Positions 22,226 through 60,943 of a stretch of 64,000 bases of DNA are shown in pieces. The first letter of the stretch is position 1. Every line of letters begins with the position of its first letter. The DNA is from Dehalococcoidia bacterium. GTDB taxonomy: Bacteria > Chloroflexota > Dehalococcoidia > UBA6926. The stretch lies in the NCBI GenBank assembly GCA_965204885.1, contig OZ242019.1, forward strand, positions 1,331,734 through 1,395,733, given 5' to 3'. The notes beneath the pieces were generated by a model. It saw nothing but the letters and a program-made list of their open reading frames with translations, did no database searches and was not told where the DNA came from. The translations under genes were made by a program, and so were the position numbers.

Positions 22226-22792
22226 CTACATCTTCAGGAAATTGCGGAGCAGGTCCTTGCCGACCTCCGTCCGAATGCTCTCCGGATGGAACTGTATGCC
22301 CACGATGGGATACTCACGGTGCCGTACGCCCATCACAACGCCCCTGTCCGTCCGCGCCGTTACCTCAAGCTCCTCAGGCACGGTATCAGGCAGGATGGCG
22401 AGCGAGTGGTAGCGGATCGCCTCGAACGGATTTGGCAGACCCTCATAGACTCCCTTGCCGTCATGGTAAATCATGCTGGATTTGCCGTGCATGATTTCTC
22501 CTGCTCCGGCCACCGTTCCGCCAAAGACCTCTCCGATGCACTGATGGCCGAGGCATACGCCCAGCACCGGCGTGCCATGCTCCCCGAAATACCGTGCCAC
22601 GTCCTTGGAGATGCCCGCATTGGCGGGATTCGACGGGCCCGGCGAGATGACCACTTTCTCCGGTTGCATCTCCACGATATTTTCAACCGTCGTCTTGTCG
22701 TTCCGATCAACGACAACGTCCTCGCCAAGCTCGGACAGGTATTGGTACAGGTTGTACGTAAAACTGTCGTAGTTATCGAGCAGGAAGATCAT
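22226..22792 (-). CDS. trpG: Anthranilate synthase component II (glutamine amidotransferase)
   Basis: 188 aa. MIFLLDNYDSFTYNLYQYL, GVCLGHQ (catalytic Cys) and FHPES are present. It overlaps trpE by 4 nt. Confidence 0.95.
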   Translation of the reverse strand: MIFLLDNYDSFTYNLYQYLSELGEDVVVDRNDKTTVENIVEMQPEKVVISPGPSNPANAGISKDVARYFGEHGTPVLGVCLGHQCIGEVFGGTVAGAGEIMHGKSSMIYHDGKGVYEGLPNPFEAIRYHSLAILPDTVPEELEVTARTDRGVVMGVRHREYPIVGIQFHPESIRTEVGKDLLRNFLKM

Positions 22793-24309
22793 TGCACGCC
22801 TCCCACCGGTTCGGCCGCAAGCCTGTTGATGCGATCGTTCGTGAGGTCCTCTCCGGCGTCCAGCGCCGCCAGCATCCCACGCGCCTTTGCCAAAGACTCT
22901 TCGTACTCAGACCGCGGGACGCTGTCATAGACAAGACCGCCGCCCGCCTGCACGGTCGCCAGACCGTCCTTCATCACGACGGTTCGAATGCAGATCGCCA
23001 TGTCCATGTTTCCCACCTTGGAGAAGTAGCCTACCGCGCCGCTGTACGGCCCGCGTTCGTGCGGCTCTTTCTCGGAGATGATTTCCATTGCCCGCACCTT
23101 TGGAGCGCCGGACAACGTTCCCGCCGGGAAGCAGGAGCGCAGCGTGTCGAATGCAGTCAGCCCCTCTCGGAGCTTGCCCGTCACGTTTGAGACGATGTGC
23201 ATCACATGTGAATACCGTTCGATTTCCATGAGCTTCGTAACATTGACAGTGCCGGGCTCGCTGACGCGGCCGATGTCGTTCCGGCCGAGATCGACGAGCA
23301 TGATGTGTTCCGCCCGCTCCTTCTCGTCCGTGATCAGCTCCTCGGCTAGCGCGTCGTCCTCCTCCGGCGTCTCGCCGCGCCGCCGTGTGCCTGCTATCGG
23401 GTGCGTCGTTGTCATCCCATCCTCAACACGAACGAGCATCTCCGGCGACGAGCCGATGATGTGAAAGTCTCCCATATCGAGGAAGTACATATAGGGCGAG
23501 GGATTTAATGTCCGCAGCGCGCGGTAGATGTCAAACGGAGCGGCAGACGTGCGCCGCGCCAGCCGCTGGGACAGAACCACTTGGATGCATTCGCCGTCCG
23601 TGATCAGCTCCCGTGCCTCCTCAACCTGACCCATGAACGACTCCGGCGTGTGATTGGACGTCAACTCGCTCCGGTAATCGTCCGCGTCACCGGGGTCGAG
23701 ACACGGGTTGCCGTCGAGGCTGCCCGTCTGCAGCCTTAGGATGATGTTGTCGATGTGTTCTATGGCTTGCTGATAGGACTCGTGGATTTGGTCATCGTCG
23801 CCCTCAAGCGATGCATAGTTGACGACTTTGATGACGTGCTTGACGTGGTCGAAGATGAGCAGCGTGTCCGTCAACATGAACACGGATTCCGGCAGCTGCA
23901 TCGGATCGGGGTTCTCATTGCGCGGCACACGCGGCTCAAAATGATGGACGGCCTCGTAAGCGATGAACCCCACCGCCCCGCCAAGGAAACGCGGCAGCCC
24001 GGGCACCTGGACGGGCCTGATTCCTTCCAGTTCCTTCTCAATCAGTGTCAATGGATCAATGCTGCCGTGCGGCGTTTCCGGTCCGGTCATGATGACCTTG
24101 GTCGGCAGGGTGCCGATGAAACTGTAACGAGCGACCCGCTCGCCGCCCTCCACGCTTTCCAGCAGAAACGAGGGCGCTTCCTGCGCTACCTTGAGGTAGG
24201 CGGTGACGGGGGTCTCCATATCTGCGGGAATGTCACGCCAGACGGGCGCGGTGTTCCCCTGGCCGCGCATCGCGCATACCTCATCCACGCTTGGGAAATA
24301 CGTCGCCAT
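22789..24309 (-). CDS. trpE: Anthranilate synthase component I
   Basis: 506 aa. LESVEGGERVARYSFIG, the chorismate-binding domain and GAVGYF are present. Confidence 0.96.
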   Translation of the reverse strand: MATYFPSVDEVCAMRGQGNTAPVWRDIPADMETPVTAYLKVAQEAPSFLLESVEGGERVARYSFIGTLPTKVIMTGPETPHGSIDPLTLIEKELEGIRPVQVPGLPRFLGGAVGFIAYEAVHHFEPRVPRNENPDPMQLPESVFMLTDTLLIFDHVKHVIKVVNYASLEGDDDQIHESYQQAIEHIDNIILRLQTGSLDGNPCLDPGDADDYRSELTSNHTPESFMGQVEEARELITDGECIQVVLSQRLARRTSAAPFDIYRALRTLNPSPYMYFLDMGDFHIIGSSPEMLVRVEDGMTTTHPIAGTRRRGETPEEDDALAEELITDEKERAEHIMLVDLGRNDIGRVSEPGTVNVTKLMEIERYSHVMHIVSNVTGKLREGLTAFDTLRSCFPAGTLSGAPKVRAMEIISEKEPHERGPYSGAVGYFSKVGNMDMAICIRTVVMKDGLATVQAGGGLVYDSVPRSEYEESLAKARGMLAALDAGEDLTNDRINRLAAEPVGGVQ

Positions 24310-24360: not shown

Positions 24361-24391
24361 AAACAAAAAGCCCGTCCCTCAAAGGGACGGG
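24361..24391 (-). terminator. Intrinsic terminator of the T-box leader
   Basis: The minus strand reads CCCGTCCC-TTTGA-GGGACGGG followed by CTTTTTGTTT, immediately 3' of the T-box sequence. Confidence 0.8.
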
Positions 24392-24672
24392 TCCTCGTTT
24401 CGCGTGGATTCCCGCGGTGCCACCCTTATTCCCCCGCCTGCATGGCGGGAGCTCTCGTTAGGTACTTCCCTTTGGCCTTAGCCTCTGGGGGTATACCGTG
24501 GACGTGTAACGGCGTCCCAACCCGTCGGAGCCTACTGGGTTGCGGCTTCCGCCGCCCTGTTCGGTCCGCAGCTCCCGAGTCCATTCCCGTCCGGTTCGGC
24601 GTCGGGATTCCACCAATCCCCGACTCTCTGCAGCCTGACGATGGACGGTACTACTCTCGTTCGTCGCCTTTG
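24361..24672 (-). promoter_or_regulatory. T-box riboswitch leader, Trp-specific (specifier UGG), controlling trpE
   Basis: The minus strand shows Stem I elements (GAGAGUAGUA; AG bulge CAGAGAG; distal loop UUGGUGGAA). The specifier loop is GAA-UGG-A, with the UGG codon at 24581-24583. The T-box core is AAGGGUGGCACCGCGGG (24411-24427), followed by the terminator. Confidence 0.85.
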
Positions 24673-24688
24673 GTTTTCGTATTCAGTT

Positions 24689-28291: not shown

Positions 28292-29239
28292 TTACTTCTG
28301 ACCGTCCCGCTCCTTGCGGATCGCAGAAAAATCCTCGCGACGCCACCGGTAGGGGGAGTGGACAATTGTTCCCGGTTCCGTGACAGTCTCCAGCAGGTTG
28401 AGCGCGTCTTCAACGATTGTTCTCTGTTGATCCACGTTGTCCGGCTGCCCGAACGGCTGCCCATACGGGTGTTTCACATAGAGTGACCGTGGTGGTTTGA
28501 CCCGCATGGGCTGCTGCAAACCCTGGTTCACCACCACCGTAGAAATCCCGTGCTCCTCAAGCACCCGTGCGATCAGCCCGCCGGACTGATTGCACATCGG
28601 TCAAGTTGTCCCGATCAAAGCCGCGTCAACGTCTTCCTCAAGGAGCATTCGGGCTGCTTCCGGCGCCGTCTCTTCCATCAGGCGGGGGATGTTGTCGCCG
28701 ATGATGTACCCCATGAAGCCGAAGGAATTCGCCGCGATTGACCCAATCCGTCTTTCCTCTTCCATATCCCGCAGACGTTCGATTGGAAAGATGACGTTGA
28801 TGTCCTTCTCCGCGTTGGACTTGTCATAGTGCTCATGGAAGATCGCTAGGTCGGACACCGGTGTTGTGGAGGGGATCACGCGATACGTGGGGTCGTCATC
28901 AATGTATGGTTCCTGCGCGTCTCGCACATAGGCCCCGCCCGTTGTCAGCAGCGCAATACGTGCCTCTGAGAGCGGTTTCTGAAATGCCGTCCATGGTGAA
29001 GAATCAAATGAGATGGCGTTGGGATTCACTCGCGATACCAGGTCGCGCTCCCACTCACTCAGGTATGCGTCCACCCGCGACCAATCTCCGTCGTCATGGG
29101 AGAGCAGGGCAGCCTCATACAGCCCGTTGAAAAAGCGCGTCGCCTCCTCTTCAGGGAGGCGTTCCATCCTGATCTTGGAGAACGCCATGTTCTCGATAGA
29201 CGGCGGCAGCCGCGCCAGGTCACGTAGTTCAATTGGCAT
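28292..29239 (-). CDS. GrdB-like (glycine/sarcosine/betaine/D-proline reductase selenoprotein B family) protein, copy 1; in-frame UGA at 28601-28603 read as selenocysteine
   Basis: Track ORFs 28601..29239 and 28292..28597 are in the same frame and are separated only by TGA plus one codon. Read-through gives ...DVDAALIGTT-U-PMCNQSGGLIARVLEEHGISTVVVNQ.... Family hallmarks are ALLTTGG, IPS..P..DL.I.H..YD, DINVIFPIERL and GFMG. A SECIS-like hairpin lies 10 nt after the UGA. Confidence 0.75.
28572..28590 (-). promoter_or_regulatory. SECIS-like hairpin for GrdB-like copy 1
   Basis: The mRNA reads UGA-N10-AUCAGUCC-GGC-GGGCUGAU. The stem is 8 bp including one G-U pair. Confidence 0.6.
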
Positions 29240-29410: not shown

Positions 29411-30262
29411 CTACTCTGAGTTCTTTCCGTTCCGCTCCTTGCGAATCGCAGAAAAATCCTCGCGACGCCACCGGTAGGGGGAGTGGACGATTGTTCCCGG
29501 TTCCGTGACAGTCTCCAGCAGGCTGAGCGCGTCTTCAACAATTGTTCTCTGTTGATCCACATTGTCCGGCTGCCCGAACGGCCGCCCATACGGGTGCTTC
29601 ACATACAACGTGCGGGGCGGTTTGACACGCGTCGGTTGCTCCAATGACTGGTTCACAACCACTGTCGCGATTCCGTTTTCTTCAAGAACGCGTGCGATCA
29701 GCCCGCCGGACTGATTGCAGACGGGTCAAGTTGTGCCAATAAGGGCGGCAGTCACGTCGTCAGCCAACAACAGCCGTGCGGCTTCCGAGGCTGTCTGCTC
29801 AATCAGACGACGAATATTCTTCCCGTGGATGCTACCCATGAACCCAACGTGGTTCTCAGCCACGGAGCCGATTATTCCCTCTGCCTCCATGTCCCGCAGA
29901 CGGTCGATCGGATAGACGACATTGATGTCTTTCTCGGCGTGAGAATTGTCATAGTGCCTATGGAATATAGCCAAATCATCTTCTGGAGTTGACGACGGGA
30001 TTGTTCGGAACGAGGGATCATTATCGACGAAGGGCTCTTGCACTGACCCAACGTAGACCCCACCGGTCGTTATAAGAGCGAGGCGCGCTTCAGCTAGTGA
30101 TCTTTCAAACGGCGTCCAGGGTGACCAATCGTAAGAAACCGGGGAATAGATCATGCGCCAAACGATGAAGTTGACCGCGGGTTTCGGCACTCTCCAGCGG
30201 ATAAAGGCTAGCCTGGAAGCAACTGCCTTTCCAAGGTGATGGGCTAGGTCTACCAGTTTCAT
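29411..30262 (-). CDS. GrdB-like selenoprotein B family protein, copy 2; in-frame UGA at 29726-29728 read as selenocysteine
   Basis: Track ORFs 29726..30262 and 29411..29662 are in the same frame. My read-through translation is ...DVTAALIGTT-U-PVCNQSGGLIARVLEENGIATVVVNQ.... The motifs match copy 1 and the hairpin is identical. Confidence 0.75.
29697..29715 (-). promoter_or_regulatory. SECIS-like hairpin for GrdB-like copy 2
   Basis: The 19-nt hairpin is identical to copy 1, again beginning 10 nt after the UGA. Confidence 0.6.
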
Positions 30263-30304: not shown

Positions 30305-30763
30305 TTAGACCGGACGCCAATACTCGTAGACCAGCGCCAGTTCCTTCAGGTACGCCTCTTCGTCGTCGCAGTCCCATCCGCGCATCTCGCGGACAAGGTC
30401 GCAGAACCGCGTGCCGGGCCGCCTTGTGTGTTGGTTCACCACGACGACGCTGAGCAGGGGGCGTTCATATGCGCCTTCAAGCTCACATACCATCGTTAGC
30501 AACTCACCCGCATTGCGAGGGTTGATGGCGGGGTCGCCCAATTGGGCGGCGAACTGCCCGTACGTCATGCGCTGCCCGCTGCGGGCGATTGGGATGAGGA
30601 TCTGACGCGCACGCTCAATCAGCGCGGCATCAATGGGTACTCCGGTGTTTTCTTCCTCTGCTTCTCTCTCGCGCTGTCGTCCAAGCGCGAGAGAGGTCAG
30701 CAACGGATCAGGCTCATAAACCATGGTTCTCTCGTGAACATCTCTAGTCGCGCCTCCGGCCAA
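30305..30763 (-). CDS. Hypothetical protein, paralogue B of an unrecognised domain family
   Basis: 152 aa from a TTG start directly after the upstream stop. An alternative ATG lies at 30722-30724. It shares the block AR..L...AR.G..[IM][ST]YG[EQ][MF]A..L ... LL.V.VV.....PG..F..L.RE with the upstream gene. Confidence 0.6.
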   Translation of the reverse strand: MAGGATRDVHERTMVYEPDPLLTSLALGRQREREAEEENTGVPIDAALIERARQILIPIARSGQRMTYGQFAAQLGDPAINPRNAGELLTMVCELEGAYERPLLSVVVVNQHTRRPGTRFCDLVREMRGWDCDDEEAYLKELALVYEYWRPV

Positions 30764-31309
30764 CTATCTTCCAAATATCCTCGCAAGGCCACGTATGAAA
30801 GCCCGGAGCGGATTGCTTTTCTCAGGCGTGGACGTGCCGGGTTCTCCGGCCGGTGTGCCATCAGATGCCGTGAACTCCTTGTCATCTGAGCTGTAATAGA
30901 GGCGCTCCAATTGCTTTATGACAACGTCGTGGAGAATATCCAATTCCTCCGCAGGGCGTCCCTGCCACTGCGCAACTACTCTCTCAGACTCCTCCAGGTA
31001 AAAAATCTTCTCGTTCTCGAATTGACGTCCCAGTTCACGGGCGAGATTAAAGAATGCGGTGCCGGGTGTTCCCTGGCGCTTCCGGACAACCAGCACCCCC
31101 AACAGGCCCCGGCCTGCCGCCTCCTCGGTGCGTGACAGCTCATTCAATGTCTCGGTGAATTCGCCGCTCTGAGGGCTGAGAACCAGTGCTGTTGCCATTT
31201 CACCGTAAGAGATCGTTCGGCCCTCTCTCGCTCGCGCGACAAGGATTTCCCATGCTCGCGCAAGTGCTCCGTGGTCACGACCACCGCCATCGTTTTGGGC
31301 ACCACTCAT
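30764..31309 (-). CDS. Hypothetical protein, paralogue A of an unrecognised domain family
   Basis: 181 aa. The ATG at 31307-31309 lies 19 nt after the Mo-subunit stop. It is homologous to 30305..30763 and carries an extra C-terminal Ser/Thr/Pro-rich segment. Confidence 0.6.
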   Translation of the reverse strand: MSGAQNDGGGRDHGALARAWEILVARAREGRTISYGEMATALVLSPQSGEFTETLNELSRTEEAAGRGLLGVLVVRKRQGTPGTAFFNLARELGRQFENEKIFYLEESERVVAQWQGRPAEELDILHDVVIKQLERLYYSSDDKEFTASDGTPAGEPGTSTPEKSNPLRAFIRGLARIFGR

Positions 31310-31328: not shown

Positions 31329-33566
31329 CTACTTCAGTTCCTGGTACACCTTCTCCGCTGTGATTGGCAGGCTGTCCACACGCGCGCCGATGCTGTCCGC
31401 AACCGCGTTGGCGATGGCCGGCGCAGCCATGCTGTTTGCATGCTCTCCGATGCCGCGTGCTCTAAGGGGGCCGTGACCGTCATCGGACTCCATCACGACA
31501 ACGTCAAGGCTTGGGATGTCACGAGCCGTCGGCAGCTTCATGTCCGCGAACGACGGATTCATGACACGCCCGCTCTCATCGTAGAATAACCCTTCCATCA
31601 ACGCCGAGCCAATGGACTGTACGATGCCGCCTTCAATCTGGCTTGTGAATCCCATGGGGTTCAACACGCGGCCCGTCTCATGGACTGCCGTGTATCGCAG
31701 CGGCGTCACCTCCGCCGTGTCAGGGTCGACGGATACATCCACGACGTGGACGCCGTAGCCGTTCCACGGGCTGTCAAAGCCCTCCATCTCATCCGTCCGC
31801 GCGCCAACAGGCTCGCCGAAGCGCCGGGCAATGTCCTCAATAGCAATTCGCTCATCCGAGTTCGCGCCGTTCACTATATGGCCCGCCTCGATGGTCAACC
31901 GCTCCTCATCCCAACCCATGAACTCTGACGTTAGGCGCTGAAGACGTCCCTTTACCTCCTGCATCGCGTTGAAACCCGCCGTGCTGAACATCCGCGCGCC
32001 GCGGCTCCCTGCAATGCCCATGTCTCCTGTCTTGCCCTCACGTGTCGACCATGTCACGACGTCGATCCGGTCGATTGGAATGTCAAGCTCGTCGGCGACG
32101 ATCTGCGCGATGATGGTGCCCGTTCCCGTTCCGGGATCGAAGACCGGATGATTGATCTCAACGCGGCCATTCTCCATGACCTTAACGGCCACACTGCCGG
32201 TCACGCCGATCTGTGAGTGGCTCCCAATTGCCACGCCGCGGCCCACGCCCTCCGGCTTCGGCTCGTAATAACCCGCGGCCTCCGCCGCGCGTCTGAGCGC
32301 CGCGCCGGCCTGCACGTTCTGCCACTCTTCGCCCGTTGGATACTCCTCGCCGGGCTCAACCACGTTGTGCAACCGGAAATCCATCGGGTCCATACCAATG
32401 GCCCGCGCCAGCACGTCCATGTGCGATTCCCCGGCAAAGTGGCCCTGAACGTGCCCGGGCGCCCGCGCGTATGTGCACGGGGACGTATTGGTGTACACCT
32501 GGTGCGAGTCCACCTTGACGTTCGCAATGCGGTACGGCCCGACGATTTCCAGGATGCCCATGATGGCGGGTATGGGAGCGTAAGCCGCATAGCCGCCGCC
32601 CGCGAAGTGAATCTCTGACTCCCATGCTGTGATCGTGCCGTCGTTCTTGACACCCGCCTTTACCCGCATCGTTGCCGGGTGGCGCATCGTCATGTTCTGG
32701 AATTCTTCGTCGTATTCAATCGTCCACTTGATCGGCCTGCCGGTCCGCTTCGTGAACTCGTACGCGAGCGCAACATCCGTGCCGGACGACTTGCCGCCGA
32801 ACGAGCCGCCAACATAGTTGAAATTGAAGTTGATTGCGTCATCATCAAGGCCGTACAGCCGCTGCATCTCTTCCAGCGCACCGGTCGGAGTATCGTTCGC
32901 ATTCCATATCTGCAGCACGCCCTCATCGTCGACGTAGACAAGGCAGGCGTGCGGCTCCAGGTAGCCTTGGTGGAGCAGAGGAGTGCGGTATGTTCGCTCG
33001 ATCACGTGATCCGCGTCGGAGAACCCGGCGTCCATGTCGCCCTTGGCAAAGTGCACGCCCGCATAGCGGTTCGGGTGCTCGTCCCGCGGGGGCATTCCCT
33101 CGTATGAACCGGCGTCCGGATGCAGGATTGGCGCATCCGCCGTCATGGCATCCTCCGGCGCGAAAATGGCCGGAAGCTCCTCGTAGTCGATGTCAATCAG
33201 CCCGATGGCCTGTTGCGCGATGTCCTCATCGTCCGCGACGACGGCTGCAACCTTGTCGCCGACCAGCATGACCCGATCCCATGCCAGCAGCGGCATGTCC
33301 TTGATCACTGTGCCCGTCAAGGTGCCCTTGACATCCTCGCCGGTAAGAACGAGCTGCACACCCGGGAGGGCGCTGGCGGCCGACGTGTCTACGGATACGA
33401 TGCGCGCATGGGGAAACGGGCTGCGCAGGATCTTCATCCACAACATGCCGGGCATCTGCGCGTCAAGCCCGTATACGGCAGACCCCGTCACCTTTTCCGG
33501 CCCGTCCACCCGTGGAACTGATGTCCCGACCAGTTTTGAACCACCACTCCCTGCGGTTGATGTCAC
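31329..33566 (-). CDS. Xanthine dehydrogenase / aldehyde oxidase family molybdopterin-binding (large) subunit
   Basis: VGTSVPRVDGPEKVTGSAVYGLD, VGGSFGGK and the large a/b-hammerhead plus MoCo domains are present. The track ORF starts at TTG 33596. I prefer the GTG at 33564-33566, which follows a GGGGGG run. The start is uncertain. Confidence 0.88.
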   Translation of the reverse strand: MTSTAGSGGSKLVGTSVPRVDGPEKVTGSAVYGLDAQMPGMLWMKILRSPFPHARIVSVDTSAASALPGVQLVLTGEDVKGTLTGTVIKDMPLLAWDRVMLVGDKVAAVVADDEDIAQQAIGLIDIDYEELPAIFAPEDAMTADAPILHPDAGSYEGMPPRDEHPNRYAGVHFAKGDMDAGFSDADHVIERTYRTPLLHQGYLEPHACLVYVDDEGVLQIWNANDTPTGALEEMQRLYGLDDDAINFNFNYVGGSFGGKSSGTDVALAYEFTKRTGRPIKWTIEYDEEFQNMTMRHPATMRVKAGVKNDGTITAWESEIHFAGGGYAAYAPIPAIMGILEIVGPYRIANVKVDSHQVYTNTSPCTYARAPGHVQGHFAGESHMDVLARAIGMDPMDFRLHNVVEPGEEYPTGEEWQNVQAGAALRRAAEAAGYYEPKPEGVGRGVAIGSHSQIGVTGSVAVKVMENGRVEINHPVFDPGTGTGTIIAQIVADELDIPIDRIDVVTWSTREGKTGDMGIAGSRGARMFSTAGFNAMQEVKGRLQRLTSEFMGWDEERLTIEAGHIVNGANSDERIAIEDIARRFGEPVGARTDEMEGFDSPWNGYGVHVVDVSVDPDTAEVTPLRYTAVHETGRVLNPMGFTSQIEGGIVQSIGSALMEGLFYDESGRVMNPSFADMKLPTARDIPSLDVVVMESDDGHGPLRARGIGEHANSMAAPAIANAVADSIGARVDSLPITAEKVYQELK

Positions 33567-33718
33567 TGTAAGACCCCCCGAATAAACCTCTTGCAACTGT
33601 GTTCTGCATTGTAACGCAGGGATGCCGTTTCTGCGCCCGTAGCATCGCTCGTTTGAGCACTGTTACACTCTAGAAAGTTCGCAGTATCTGACAAATCCAG
33701 GGCAGGGGGAAAACGCTA

Positions 33719-59346: not shown

Positions 59347-59392
59347 GCTCATCCTGAGCTTGTCGAAGGAAGCCTGTCGAAGGACATGAGCG
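59347..59392. repeat. REP-like palindromic element (CTCATCCTGAGC..TCGAAGGA family)
   Basis: gctcatcctgagcttgtcgaaggaagcctgtcgaaggacatgagcg has terminal inverted GCTCAT/ATGAGC and an internal direct repeat TGTCGAAGGA. Confidence 0.55.
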
Positions 59393-59395
59393 CCC

Positions 59396-60223
59396 TCACA
59401 CCTCAAGCGGCGTATCGTCTCGATTCGCCCATTCCCGCATGGAACCGTCGTAGTTCCGCGTGCTTTCGTAACCGACAAGCCGCATGACGAATACTCCGTG
59501 CGCCGCACGGATGCCGCCCTGTCAATATGTATAAACATTCTTGTCCGGCGTGATGCCGTGTTCTGACAGCAGTCTCCGTATCTCGGACGCCGACTTGAAC
59601 CGGTGCGTCTCGCGGTCCATCAGGTTCAGCCATTCAAGGTGAACGGCCCCGGGAATATGCCCGGCTCGCGCGTTGGCGCGATTGTTAGATCCGTCCCATT
59701 CGCCGTCGGTGCGAACGTCCCAAACAACGGAATCCTCGAGCGTGCATGCCTCCTTCAACCCTTCCACCGTCACCAGCAGTGAGTCATCAAGGTTAGGCGT
59801 GAACGTCACGCCTTCCGCCCGCGCCGGTCGCTGGAAACTGATCGTGTGGCCGCCTGTGACCCAACCCCGCCAGCCCCCGTTCAGTACCCGCGCGCCCTGA
59901 TGCCCGTACGTGTTGAGCACCCACCACAGCCGAGCTGCCGTCACACTCTGTGCGTTGTCGTAAGAGATCACTAACGTGTCATCGCTGATGCCGAGTCCCT
60001 CGCACATCTCCTTGAACTGCGTGGGTGTCATCATCAGCGTGCGATTCGTGTCAGGGTCTTTCACGAAGTTGTCCGGGATCAGAACCGAACCCGGGATATG
60101 GCCCCTGTTGTAGCCCGCGTCAACGTCGCAGTCCACGACCACGACGTTGGCATCGTTCAAGTGCTCTGCCAGCCAATCCGCCTCCACCAGGTACTCCGGA
60201 TGGGCATAGTCCTCGGTAGTCAT
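59396..60223 (-). CDS. Two-domain rhodanese (thiosulfate/3-mercaptopyruvate sulfurtransferase-like) with UGA (selenocysteine) in place of the catalytic cysteine
   Basis: Track ORF 59522..60223 stops at TGA 59522-59524, exactly where the active-site Cys is expected (...KNVYTY-U-QGGIRAAHGVFVMRLVGYESTRNYDGSMREWANRDDTPLEV*). The in-frame continuation to 59396 completes the catalytic rhodanese domain. A hairpin lies 10 nt downstream. Confidence 0.75.
59495..59511 (-). promoter_or_regulatory. SECIS-like hairpin for the rhodanese UGA
   Basis: The mRNA reads UGA-N10-UCCGUGC-GGC-GCACGGA, a 7-bp perfect stem. Confidence 0.6.
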
Positions 60224-60331: not shown

Positions 60332-60943
60332 ATGGGCATTATCGACACGGCACAGCGGATGTTCGGCGGCACAGCAGCAGTGGACAAGGATCGCGTTCCA
60401 CCCGGCCAAACCGTCACGCAGAAGTTCCCCGTTCTCTCCTACGGACAAATCCCCCAGATTGACCTCTCCACGTGGACGTTTGAGGTCATGGGTCTCGTCG
60501 ATAACCCGATTTGCCTCACATGGGAGCAATTCCTCACTCGCGCCAACGACGCCGTCACCACGGATTTTCACTGTGTCACGGGATGGTCCCGCCTCGACAA
60601 CCGCTGGGAGGGCGTCTTTGTGCGCGATCTATTCGACGAGGCCCGCATCCGTCCAACCGCAACCCACGTCATGGCCCACTGCTACGGCGGGTACACGACG
60701 AATCTGCCGCTAGCGGCATTGTTGAATCCCGACGTCTTGATCGCGCACCGGCATGACGGAGAGCCATTGGAAACTGAGCATGGCGGTCCCGCCCGTCTCA
60801 TCGTGCCTGACCGCTACGCCTACAAGAGCGCCAAGTGGATCAAGGCGTTGGAGCTCATGCCGGAGAACAAGCGTGGGTTCTGGGAACTGCACGGCTACAA
60901 CGGCAACGGAGACCCGTGGCGCTCGGAACGCTACGACTTCTAA
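60332..60943 (+). CDS. Sulfite-oxidase-family molybdopterin oxidoreductase (MsrP/YedY-like catalytic domain)
   Basis: 203 aa. FHCVTGWS, HDGEPL..EHGGPARLIVP..YAYKSAKWI match the oxidoreductase molybdopterin-binding domain. Confidence 0.85.
   Translation: MGIIDTAQRMFGGTAAVDKDRVPPGQTVTQKFPVLSYGQIPQIDLSTWTFEVMGLVDNPICLTWEQFLTRANDAVTTDFHCVTGWSRLDNRWEGVFVRDLFDEARIRPTATHVMAHCYGGYTTNLPLAALLNPDVLIAHRHDGEPLETEHGGPARLIVPDRYAYKSAKWIKALELMPENKRGFWELHGYNGNGDPWRSERYDF

Follow-up and report, generated by a model that had tools for sequence, protein, structure and literature searches.

The rhodanese gene and its in-frame UGA

We analyzed a stretch of 64,000 nucleotides (nt) from a Dehalococcoidia bacterium (Chloroflexota; assembly GCA_965204885.1, contig OZ242019.1, positions 1,331,734 to 1,395,733 of the forward strand), hereafter the window, and found on its minus strand a rhodanese gene with a UGA codon at the position of the catalytic cysteine (Cys); this codon is predicted to encode selenocysteine (Sec). 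An ATG at 60223 starts a frame of 233 codons that ends in ...ITPDKNVYTY, directly before the UGA. Past the UGA, the same frame runs on for 41 codons (QGGIRAAHGVFVMRLVGYESTRNYDGSMREWANRDDTPLEV) and is closed by a second TGA, and the complete gene would give a product of 275 residues (Table 1). Re-translation confirmed every coordinate and sequence given in the first-pass annotation, which had been made from the letters of the window and had proposed a Sec-containing rhodanese here.

With the UGA read as Cys, the read-through product has two stretches that match the rhodanese family PF00581 in Pfam (E 8e-35). The N-terminal domains of tandem rhodaneses are generally non-catalytic, and in the window protein Asp89 ('...VISYDNAQS...') appears to stand where a catalytic domain has its nucleophile. 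We searched the PDB sequences with the read-through protein and found that residues 6-273 align to residues 3-280 of 1UAR from Thermus thermophilus (E 7e-44), and that there are end-to-end alignments with SseA of Mycobacterium tuberculosis (3HZU, E 4e-36) and RhdA of Azotobacter vinelandii (1E0C, E 8e-35). These PDB alignments extend to residues 273-274. The RhdA alignment ends in an ungapped block that places residue 211 of the query opposite RhdA residue 207; hence, codon 234 corresponds to RhdA position 230, which we take to be the catalytic Cys at the head of its loop, C-Q-T-H-H-R. The claim of the first-pass annotation that the UGA replaces the persulfide-forming Cys is thus borne out by alignment with solved rhodaneses. 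Since the catalytic domain spans the UGA, the annotated 233-amino-acid (aa) product ends one residue before the active site and lacks the active-site loop along with the last helix and strand. We classify the gene as a two-domain rhodanese of the SseA/TST (thiosulfate sulfurtransferase) family, COG2897, from a marine, SAR202-like bacterium of the Dehalococcoidia (Chloroflexota).

Table 1. Features of the rhodanese gene and of the two PrdB/GrdB-like genes, with positions counted from the first letter of the window
Feature	Position	Strand	Basis or remark
Sec-rhodanese gene (predicted), complete	59396..60223	minus	233 codons + UGA (Sec234) + 41 codons + terminal TGA; 275-residue product
In-frame UGA, codon 234, predicted Sec codon at the persulfide-forming catalytic position	59522..59524	minus	
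Terminal stop TGA of the rhodanese gene	59396..59398	minus	translation; homologue stops 40-45 codons past the Sec codon
N-terminal rhodanese domain, residues 15-122	59858..60181	minus	best Pfam stretch; presumed non-catalytic
C-terminal catalytic rhodanese domain, residues ~149-271	59411..59779	minus	second PF00581 stretch; single-domain PDB matches cover 149-271
Active-site loop U-Q-G-G-I-R-A, C-x4-R type, fits the 'UxxG' motif	59504..59524	minus	translation, PDB alignment, homologues
Bacterial SECIS-type hairpin UCCGUGC-GGC-GCACGGA	59495..59511	minus	7-bp stem, GGC triloop, 17 nt
PrdB/GrdB-like selenoprotein candidate A	28292..29239	minus	UGA 28603-28601 in U-P-M-C; TIGR04483 PrdB, E 1e-47
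Hairpin of candidate A, AUCAGUCC-GGC-GGGCUGAU	28590-28572	minus	8-bp stem, GGC triloop
PrdB/GrdB-like selenoprotein candidate B	29411..30262 (about)	minus	UGA 29728-29726 in U-P-V-C; TIGR04483, E 3.5e-47
Hairpin of candidate B, AUCAGUCC-GGC-GGGCUGAU	29715-29697	minus	identical to that of candidate A

Conservation of the UGA and of the frame beyond it

In a protein database, we found 7627 homologues at E <= 1e-20. Among the best 120 clusters (92% to 64% identity), one is 267 aa long and all others 232-237 aa; their coverage of the query is only 83-85%, and each has ...[YF][TAS]Y as its C-terminus. Gene callers evidently halted at the same codon in every one of them. By hand count, with the 233-aa form as the query, roughly 30 of the nearest 150 representatives in a 50%-identity library end exactly at the catalytic position. 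Some of the homologues that end there, among them the distant P0290 and P0305, have apparent signal, membrane or lipoprotein-type leaders at the N-terminus, which suggests that there are exported Sec-rhodaneses.

At the nucleotide level, we scanned one genome per bacterial species and compared the 80 closest loci (L002-L081). The catalytic codon is a stop in 60 of these loci, always TGA, and TGC or TGT in the other 20; with the window gene added, there are 61 genes with the UGA, and the internal stop is TGA in 61/61. Such a recurrence of one stop at one codon goes far beyond chance. Cys and predicted Sec codons thus interchange at this position among the homologues, and the Cys homologues of the same clade have the loop C-Q-G-G-[IY]-R-A. 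The UGA genes reach down to ~35% protein identity and belong mostly to metagenome-assembled genomes (MAGs) of Dehalococcoidia, Chloroflexota and SAR202; others are from Entotheonella, Marinacidobacterales, one Deltaproteobacteria MAG and Poribacteria.

The frame beyond the UGA is intact. We found no stop in the 38 codons 3' of the UGA in any of the 61 genes, and no frameshifts in the related genomes. The terminal stops are mixed (TAG in 35 genes, TGA in 15 and TAA in 11) and fall 40-45 codons past the UGA. For codons +11 to +38, the ratio of nonsynonymous to synonymous differences (pN/pS) is 0.33 in the 61 UGA genes, compared to 0.54 for the 30 codons 5' of the UGA. These values indicate that the stretch downstream of the UGA is under purifying selection, and no overlapping gene on another frame or strand that could lie behind this conservation is evident.

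The immediate context of the UGA is biased as well. The tyrosine codon before it (59525-59527 in the window) is TAT in 44/56 genes, and TAT makes up 25% of their tyrosine codons elsewhere. On the other side, C directly follows the UGA in 59/61 genes. The TAT before and the C after the UGA may be a context requirement for Sec insertion.

The conservation of the frame bears on whether the 233-residue form could be a functional, non-catalytic rhodanese-like module, with the downstream 41 codons translated separately or never. Inactive rhodanese-homology domains occur in nature, and an ATG lies 13 codons past the UGA, as such a module would allow. However, the shorter product would end in the middle of the catalytic domain, with the active-site loop next in line. 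In 61/61 genes, moreover, the frame continues without a break past the UGA, and its codons there are conserved. The first ten downstream codons, which lie 5' of the internal ATG, encode the conserved active-site loop. We find a truncated module hardly credible and prefer a single protein that is read through the UGA with Sec.

A SECIS-type hairpin downstream of the UGA

Directly past the UGA lies a hairpin of the type of a bacterial selenocysteine insertion sequence (bSECIS) element. Its stem begins 10 nt and its loop 17 nt past the UGA, and its sequence coincides with the codons for I-R-A-A-H-G. The published bSECIS model (PMC13188914) has a loop of 3-9 nt with G at the first two positions, a stem of 4-16 bp, a spacing of 16-37 nt from the UGA and a minimum free energy (MFE) of <= -7.5 kcal/mol. 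The window hairpin lies within all of these published limits, with a GGC loop, 7 bp, a distance of 17 nt and an MFE of -12 kcal/mol.

Among the homologues, a SECIS-type hairpin is present in 57/61 UGA genes compared to 2/20 Cys genes, with the loop 17-25 nt past the UGA. Corroborating this, the 48-nt fold from the catalytic codon averages -17.8 kcal/mol in the UGA genes and -12.9 kcal/mol in the Cys genes (Mann-Whitney p = 1e-4).

The codons that form the stem are far from the usage of the genes that carry them. In the stem of the UGA genes, isoleucine is ATC in 46/51 (69% background in the same genes), arginine is CGT in 49/61 (8% background in the same genes), and histidine is CAC in 47/48 (72% background). 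The first alanine is GCG in 55/57 and the second in 54/54, relative to a background of 29%. Synonymous differences per synonymous site (pS) fall to 0.37 in codons +1 to +10 of the UGA genes, compared to 0.63-0.69 in the flanks. Where Cys homologues also have R-A-A, these residues are encoded by different codons, among them CGC and GCC. The synonymous sites inside the hairpin are evidently frozen, and only in the UGA genes.

In the 61-sequence alignment, 83% of the cells in the stem are paired, and changes on both sides occur in 4/7 pairs. For instance, a G-C pair has become U-A in L027, and a C-G pair has become G-C in L050, L054 and L061. Sub-clades with L004, L010, L011, L016 and L017 have lost the common stem via His-to-Asn changes and have a new hairpin, CGAACA-GNN-UGUUCG, slightly downstream; L039 and L041 have yet another replacement hairpin. 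The loops of the replacement hairpins lie 23-25 nt past the UGA. We read these replacements as a case of SECIS turnover inside a single gene family.

The hairpin and the downstream frame together bear on whether the gene is a nonsense-inactivated pseudogene, now in decay after mutation of its TGC or TGT codon for Cys to TGA. A single base change converts either codon into TGA, and gene callers and public records do give a 233-aa product, as expected of such a gene. Decay is at odds with the same TGA in 60 other species-level genomes down to ~35% protein identity, with 38 downstream codons that are free of stops and frameshifts and under purifying selection, with the frozen synonymous sites in the hairpin, and with the roughly 30 of the nearest 150 representatives that end at the same position. 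We give a decaying pseudogene virtually no weight; by these comparisons, it is refuted in practice. The first-pass annotation had favored Sec over nonsense inactivation and had argued from the intact downstream frame and from a hairpin. Each of these arguments has held: the frame has 0/61 stops in the next 38 codons and a pN/pS of 0.33, the hairpin conforms to the bSECIS model and is kept at synonymous sites, and the preference for Sec is supported by TGA in 61/61 genes, the mixed terminal stops and the conserved hairpin.

Two further candidate selenoprotein genes in the window

By a systematic look at the open reading frames (ORFs) of the window that end in TGA, we found two further genes with a candidate Sec codon (candidates A and B in Table 1). 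They are paralogous, and both match NCBIfam TIGR04483 (D-proline reductase PrdB) and Pfam GRDB. Their PrdB-like homologues in the databases all end at 212 aa. PrdB-like and rhodanese homologues were found on contigs of matching size (127332, 1980353, 53878, 123254, 65616, 122051 and 151908 bp). The PrdB-like protein had no match in the PDB search, and among the few ORFs scanned beside the PrdB-like genes there was no PrdA-like partner.

In both PrdB/GrdB-like genes, the GGC loop lies 18 nt past the UGA. Hence, three UGAs in two unrelated families have a common C-GGC-G triloop 17-18 nt past the UGA, and GGC-loop hairpins with at least 6 bp number only 18 on both strands of the window. The PrdB/GrdB family is a known selenoprotein family, with Sec at a UxxC site (published family tables), and the two window genes are probably selenoproteins of this known family.

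Just upstream of the PrdB-like pair is the large subunit of a molybdenum hydroxylase of the xanthine dehydrogenase family (31329-33596, minus strand). Between this gene and the PrdB-like genes are two small ORFs (30305-31309) with no Pfam match.

Evidence for Sec decoding and points against it

TGA is the terminal stop of 18 of the 67 window ORFs picked; since it is an ordinary stop for these genes, TGA is not reassigned in this organism. Because two more UGA genes in the window carry the same triloop hairpin at the same distance, the source organism very probably decodes Sec. For comparison, Dehalococcoidia MAGs with 49 and 46 selenoproteins are among the richest entries of BSepDB, which scores only genomes with at least two Sec pathway genes (PMC13326102).

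We consider it highly probable that the UGA at codon 234 encodes Sec. Several observations weigh against this reading. Scans of the whole window (64 kb) and of the DNA beside 60 related loci turned up no selA, selB, selD or tRNA-Sec, and no neighboring gene recurs across the clade to indicate a physiological substrate. The cross-genome counts are not phylogenetically independent, and all of the compared sequences come from MAGs. Covariation in the hairpin is modest because the stem is nearly invariant. There was no match to an Rfam SECIS family in a scan of the window at the gathering threshold or in a permissive scan of positions 59380-59560. In addition, the free energy of the hairpin is ordinary for DNA of 61% G+C (z = -0.91 over 37 nt; a 91-nt span gives z = -2.35). 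We therefore dropped hairpin stability as evidence; the significance of the hairpin rests on its conservation, its position and the identity of its loop, not on its stability.

That no Sec genes were found in the window or beside the related loci also fits a different reading, in which the UGA is read through without Sec, either by a near-cognate tRNA (Trp or Cys) or with Cys inserted via the Sec pathway at low selenium, so that the enzyme would have Cys or Trp at its active site. A UGA stop is leaky when C comes next, and this is the context in 59/61 genes. However, simple leakiness would not call for a hairpin that is conserved, keeps a fixed distance and has a SelB-type G-G loop, and two other UGA genes in the window, unrelated to the rhodanese, share this hairpin. 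Moreover, the lineages that use Cys have plain TGC or TGT, and Trp as the catalytic nucleophile would abolish the enzyme. We judge readthrough without Sec very unlikely and favor Sec insertion at codon 234.

Proposed Sec enzyme and its mechanism

If the UGA is read as Sec, the ribosome would go on for 41 codons to the true stop. As the first residue of the loop U-Q-G-G-I-R, the selenolate would attack a sulfane-sulfur donor (thiosulfate, a persulfide or a polysulfide), and an enzyme Se-S(H) intermediate, a selenenyl persulfide, would form. A thiophilic acceptor (for example a thiol, thioredoxin, sulfite or cyanide) would then take over the sulfur. With its lower pKa, and as a better nucleophile and leaving group, selenium would make both half-reactions faster. 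We infer an ordinary rhodanese ping-pong mechanism with a selenolate, in which Sec is actually inserted, the substrates are among those listed above and selenium brings the kinetic advantage.

Thiosulfate sulfurtransferases have the loop C-x4-R, and 3-mercaptopyruvate sulfurtransferases (MST) have C-G-[ST]-G-V-T; the window loop U-Q-G-G-I-R is of the TST type and not of the MST type. The best NCBIfam match is 3-MST (NF008557), with 126 bits relative to a cut-off of 250, and the second best is ExtH, a rhodanese of selenite and tellurite reduction, with 69 bits relative to a cut-off of 200.

This ExtH match, though far under its cut-off, would suit a genuine Sec enzyme that works in selenium handling (delivery or detoxification via a perselenide) or as a reductase and not in sulfur transfer. 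Rhodanese domains do act in selenium metabolism, as in tRNA 2-selenouridine synthase (cited in PMC2398784). On the other hand, thiosulfate and 3-mercaptopyruvate sulfurtransferases rank first among the matches throughout, the loop is of the ordinary C-x4-R type that is common to the Cys homologues of the same clade, and there is no linkage to sel genes or to another informative neighbor. A role in selenium handling is unlikely in our view, and we retain sulfur transfer as the proposed activity.

Genomic neighborhood and other features of the window

Divergent from the rhodanese gene is a gene for a molybdopterin-binding oxidoreductase domain protein of 203 aa (60332-60943, plus strand; PF00174) with weak similarity to SoxC, SorA and MsrP. 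The divergent molybdoenzyme, MgtE and dUTPase lie beside the rhodanese gene only in the closest relatives (L001, L002, L003 and L052). An operon of a rhodanese and a sulfite oxidase was considered and dropped, as the pairing is limited to these closest relatives.

In one Dehalococcoidia MAG (L031), ARAGORN called an unusually long 'tRNA-Thr (GGT)' of 97 nt at 810-906, directly after the rhodanese stop codon; the call may be spurious or the tRNA atypical.

Elsewhere in the window, a T-box leader (24380-24673, minus strand; RF00230, 111 bits) lies directly upstream of trpE (22789-24309) and precedes a trp cluster that includes trpD, trpC and trpB. It is the only real Rfam match in the window. 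At 3.5-5.2 kb, a suspected broken tuf is actually rpsJ-rplC-rplD; since these genes are intact, there is no sign of assembly frameshifts there.

Meaning of the find

The predicted Sec form dominates among the marine Dehalococcoidia relatives (60 of the 80 closest species genomes). It would be a larger step to say that Sec is the standard form of this rhodanese across marine Dehalococcoidia and SAR202-like bacteria and not a sporadic curiosity, and we regard that generalization as rather doubtful. If it is true that the Se-S intermediate gives an activity that Cys rhodaneses lack, part of the sulfur metabolism of these abundant bacteria would be selenium-dependent.

For annotation, hundreds of such genes stand in public records as a 'sulfurtransferase' or 'hypothetical protein' of 232-234 residues, without the active site, and the PrdB/GrdB-like genes of the window are mis-annotated in the same manner as shortened proteins. 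The C-GGC-G triloop 17-18 nt past the UGA is a simple mark, specific to this organism, by which the other selenoprotein genes of the lineage could be found. The biological value of the find is modest. For enzymology, a natural rhodanese with a selenenyl persulfide intermediate would be of interest.

Comparison with known systems

We compared the window protein with rhodaneses of solved structure. The Cys-type enzymes 1UAR, 3HZU and 1E0C have the same inactive N-terminal and catalytic C-terminal domains and the same six-residue C-x4-R loop. They differ in the nucleophile, which is Cys in these enzymes and predicted to be Sec in the window protein, and in the residues that follow it (Q-G-G-I-R in the window protein, R-I-A-E-R in 1UAR and Q-T-H-H-R in RhdA). 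The 3-mercaptopyruvate sulfurtransferases (E. coli SseA, 1URH; NF008557) have the same two-domain fold; however, the window protein scores under the family cut-off, and its loop ends in arginine and lacks C-G-[ST]-G-V-T.

Other rhodaneses with Sec are single-domain proteins or fusions, namely forms 1-3 of COG0607, rhodanese_LYCAU (NF041203, with a CxU motif) and the TsoB rhodanese/DsbD fusion. They are alike in having Sec in a rhodanese fold and differ in both architecture and Sec motif. The match of the window protein to NF041203 is weak (36 bits relative to a cut-off of 115) and lies on the N-terminal domain.

The hairpin, too, has known counterparts. The SECIS of E. coli fdhF, the archetype, has a bulged U and a larger loop, whereas the window hairpin is without the bulged U and has a minimal triloop. 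The C-GGC-G loop recurs in an example SECIS that BSepDB shows for a SelD gene, with Acetomicrobium mobile in the species field. The bacterial SECIS consensus (PMC13188914, Fig. 2A) is likewise a stem-loop in the coding region just past the UGA, with a loop that starts with G-G.

The closest known system is the published Sec rhodanese of COG2897. The Sargasso Sea selenoproteome of 2005 (PMC1088965) counted a 'rhodanese-related sulfurtransferase' of COG2897, represented by three sequences, among its new selenoprotein families and gave a predicted SECIS for it. The Global Ocean Sampling (GOS) analysis of 2008 listed sulfurtransferase selenoproteins of cd01449 and COG2897 (PMC2398784), and a 2026 review lists rhodanese-like form 4, PF00581, with the motif UxxG (PMC13188914). 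The first-pass annotation had mentioned reports of rhodanese-like selenoproteins from marine surveys and called them biochemically unexplored; these three sources bear out the first point, and in the literature searched, we found no biochemical study of the Sec-rhodanese family. The published representative MCY3690685.1 was not among the members of the homologue clusters looked through.

The window gene is like the published family in its PF00581 domains, in the predicted Sec at the position of the catalytic Cys, in the UxxG motif (here U-Q-G-G), in the SECIS directly downstream, in its origin from marine uncultured bacteria and in its widespread Cys homologues. As judged from the published descriptors of the family, whose representatives are AACY01016424 and MCY3690685.1, no difference in kind is evident. 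What is added here is that the predicted Sec form is common in Dehalococcoidia and SAR202-like genomes, that synonymous sites give evidence for the SECIS, and that two other genes of the window share its loop. With every given descriptor matched, we assign the window gene to this already known Sec-rhodanese family.

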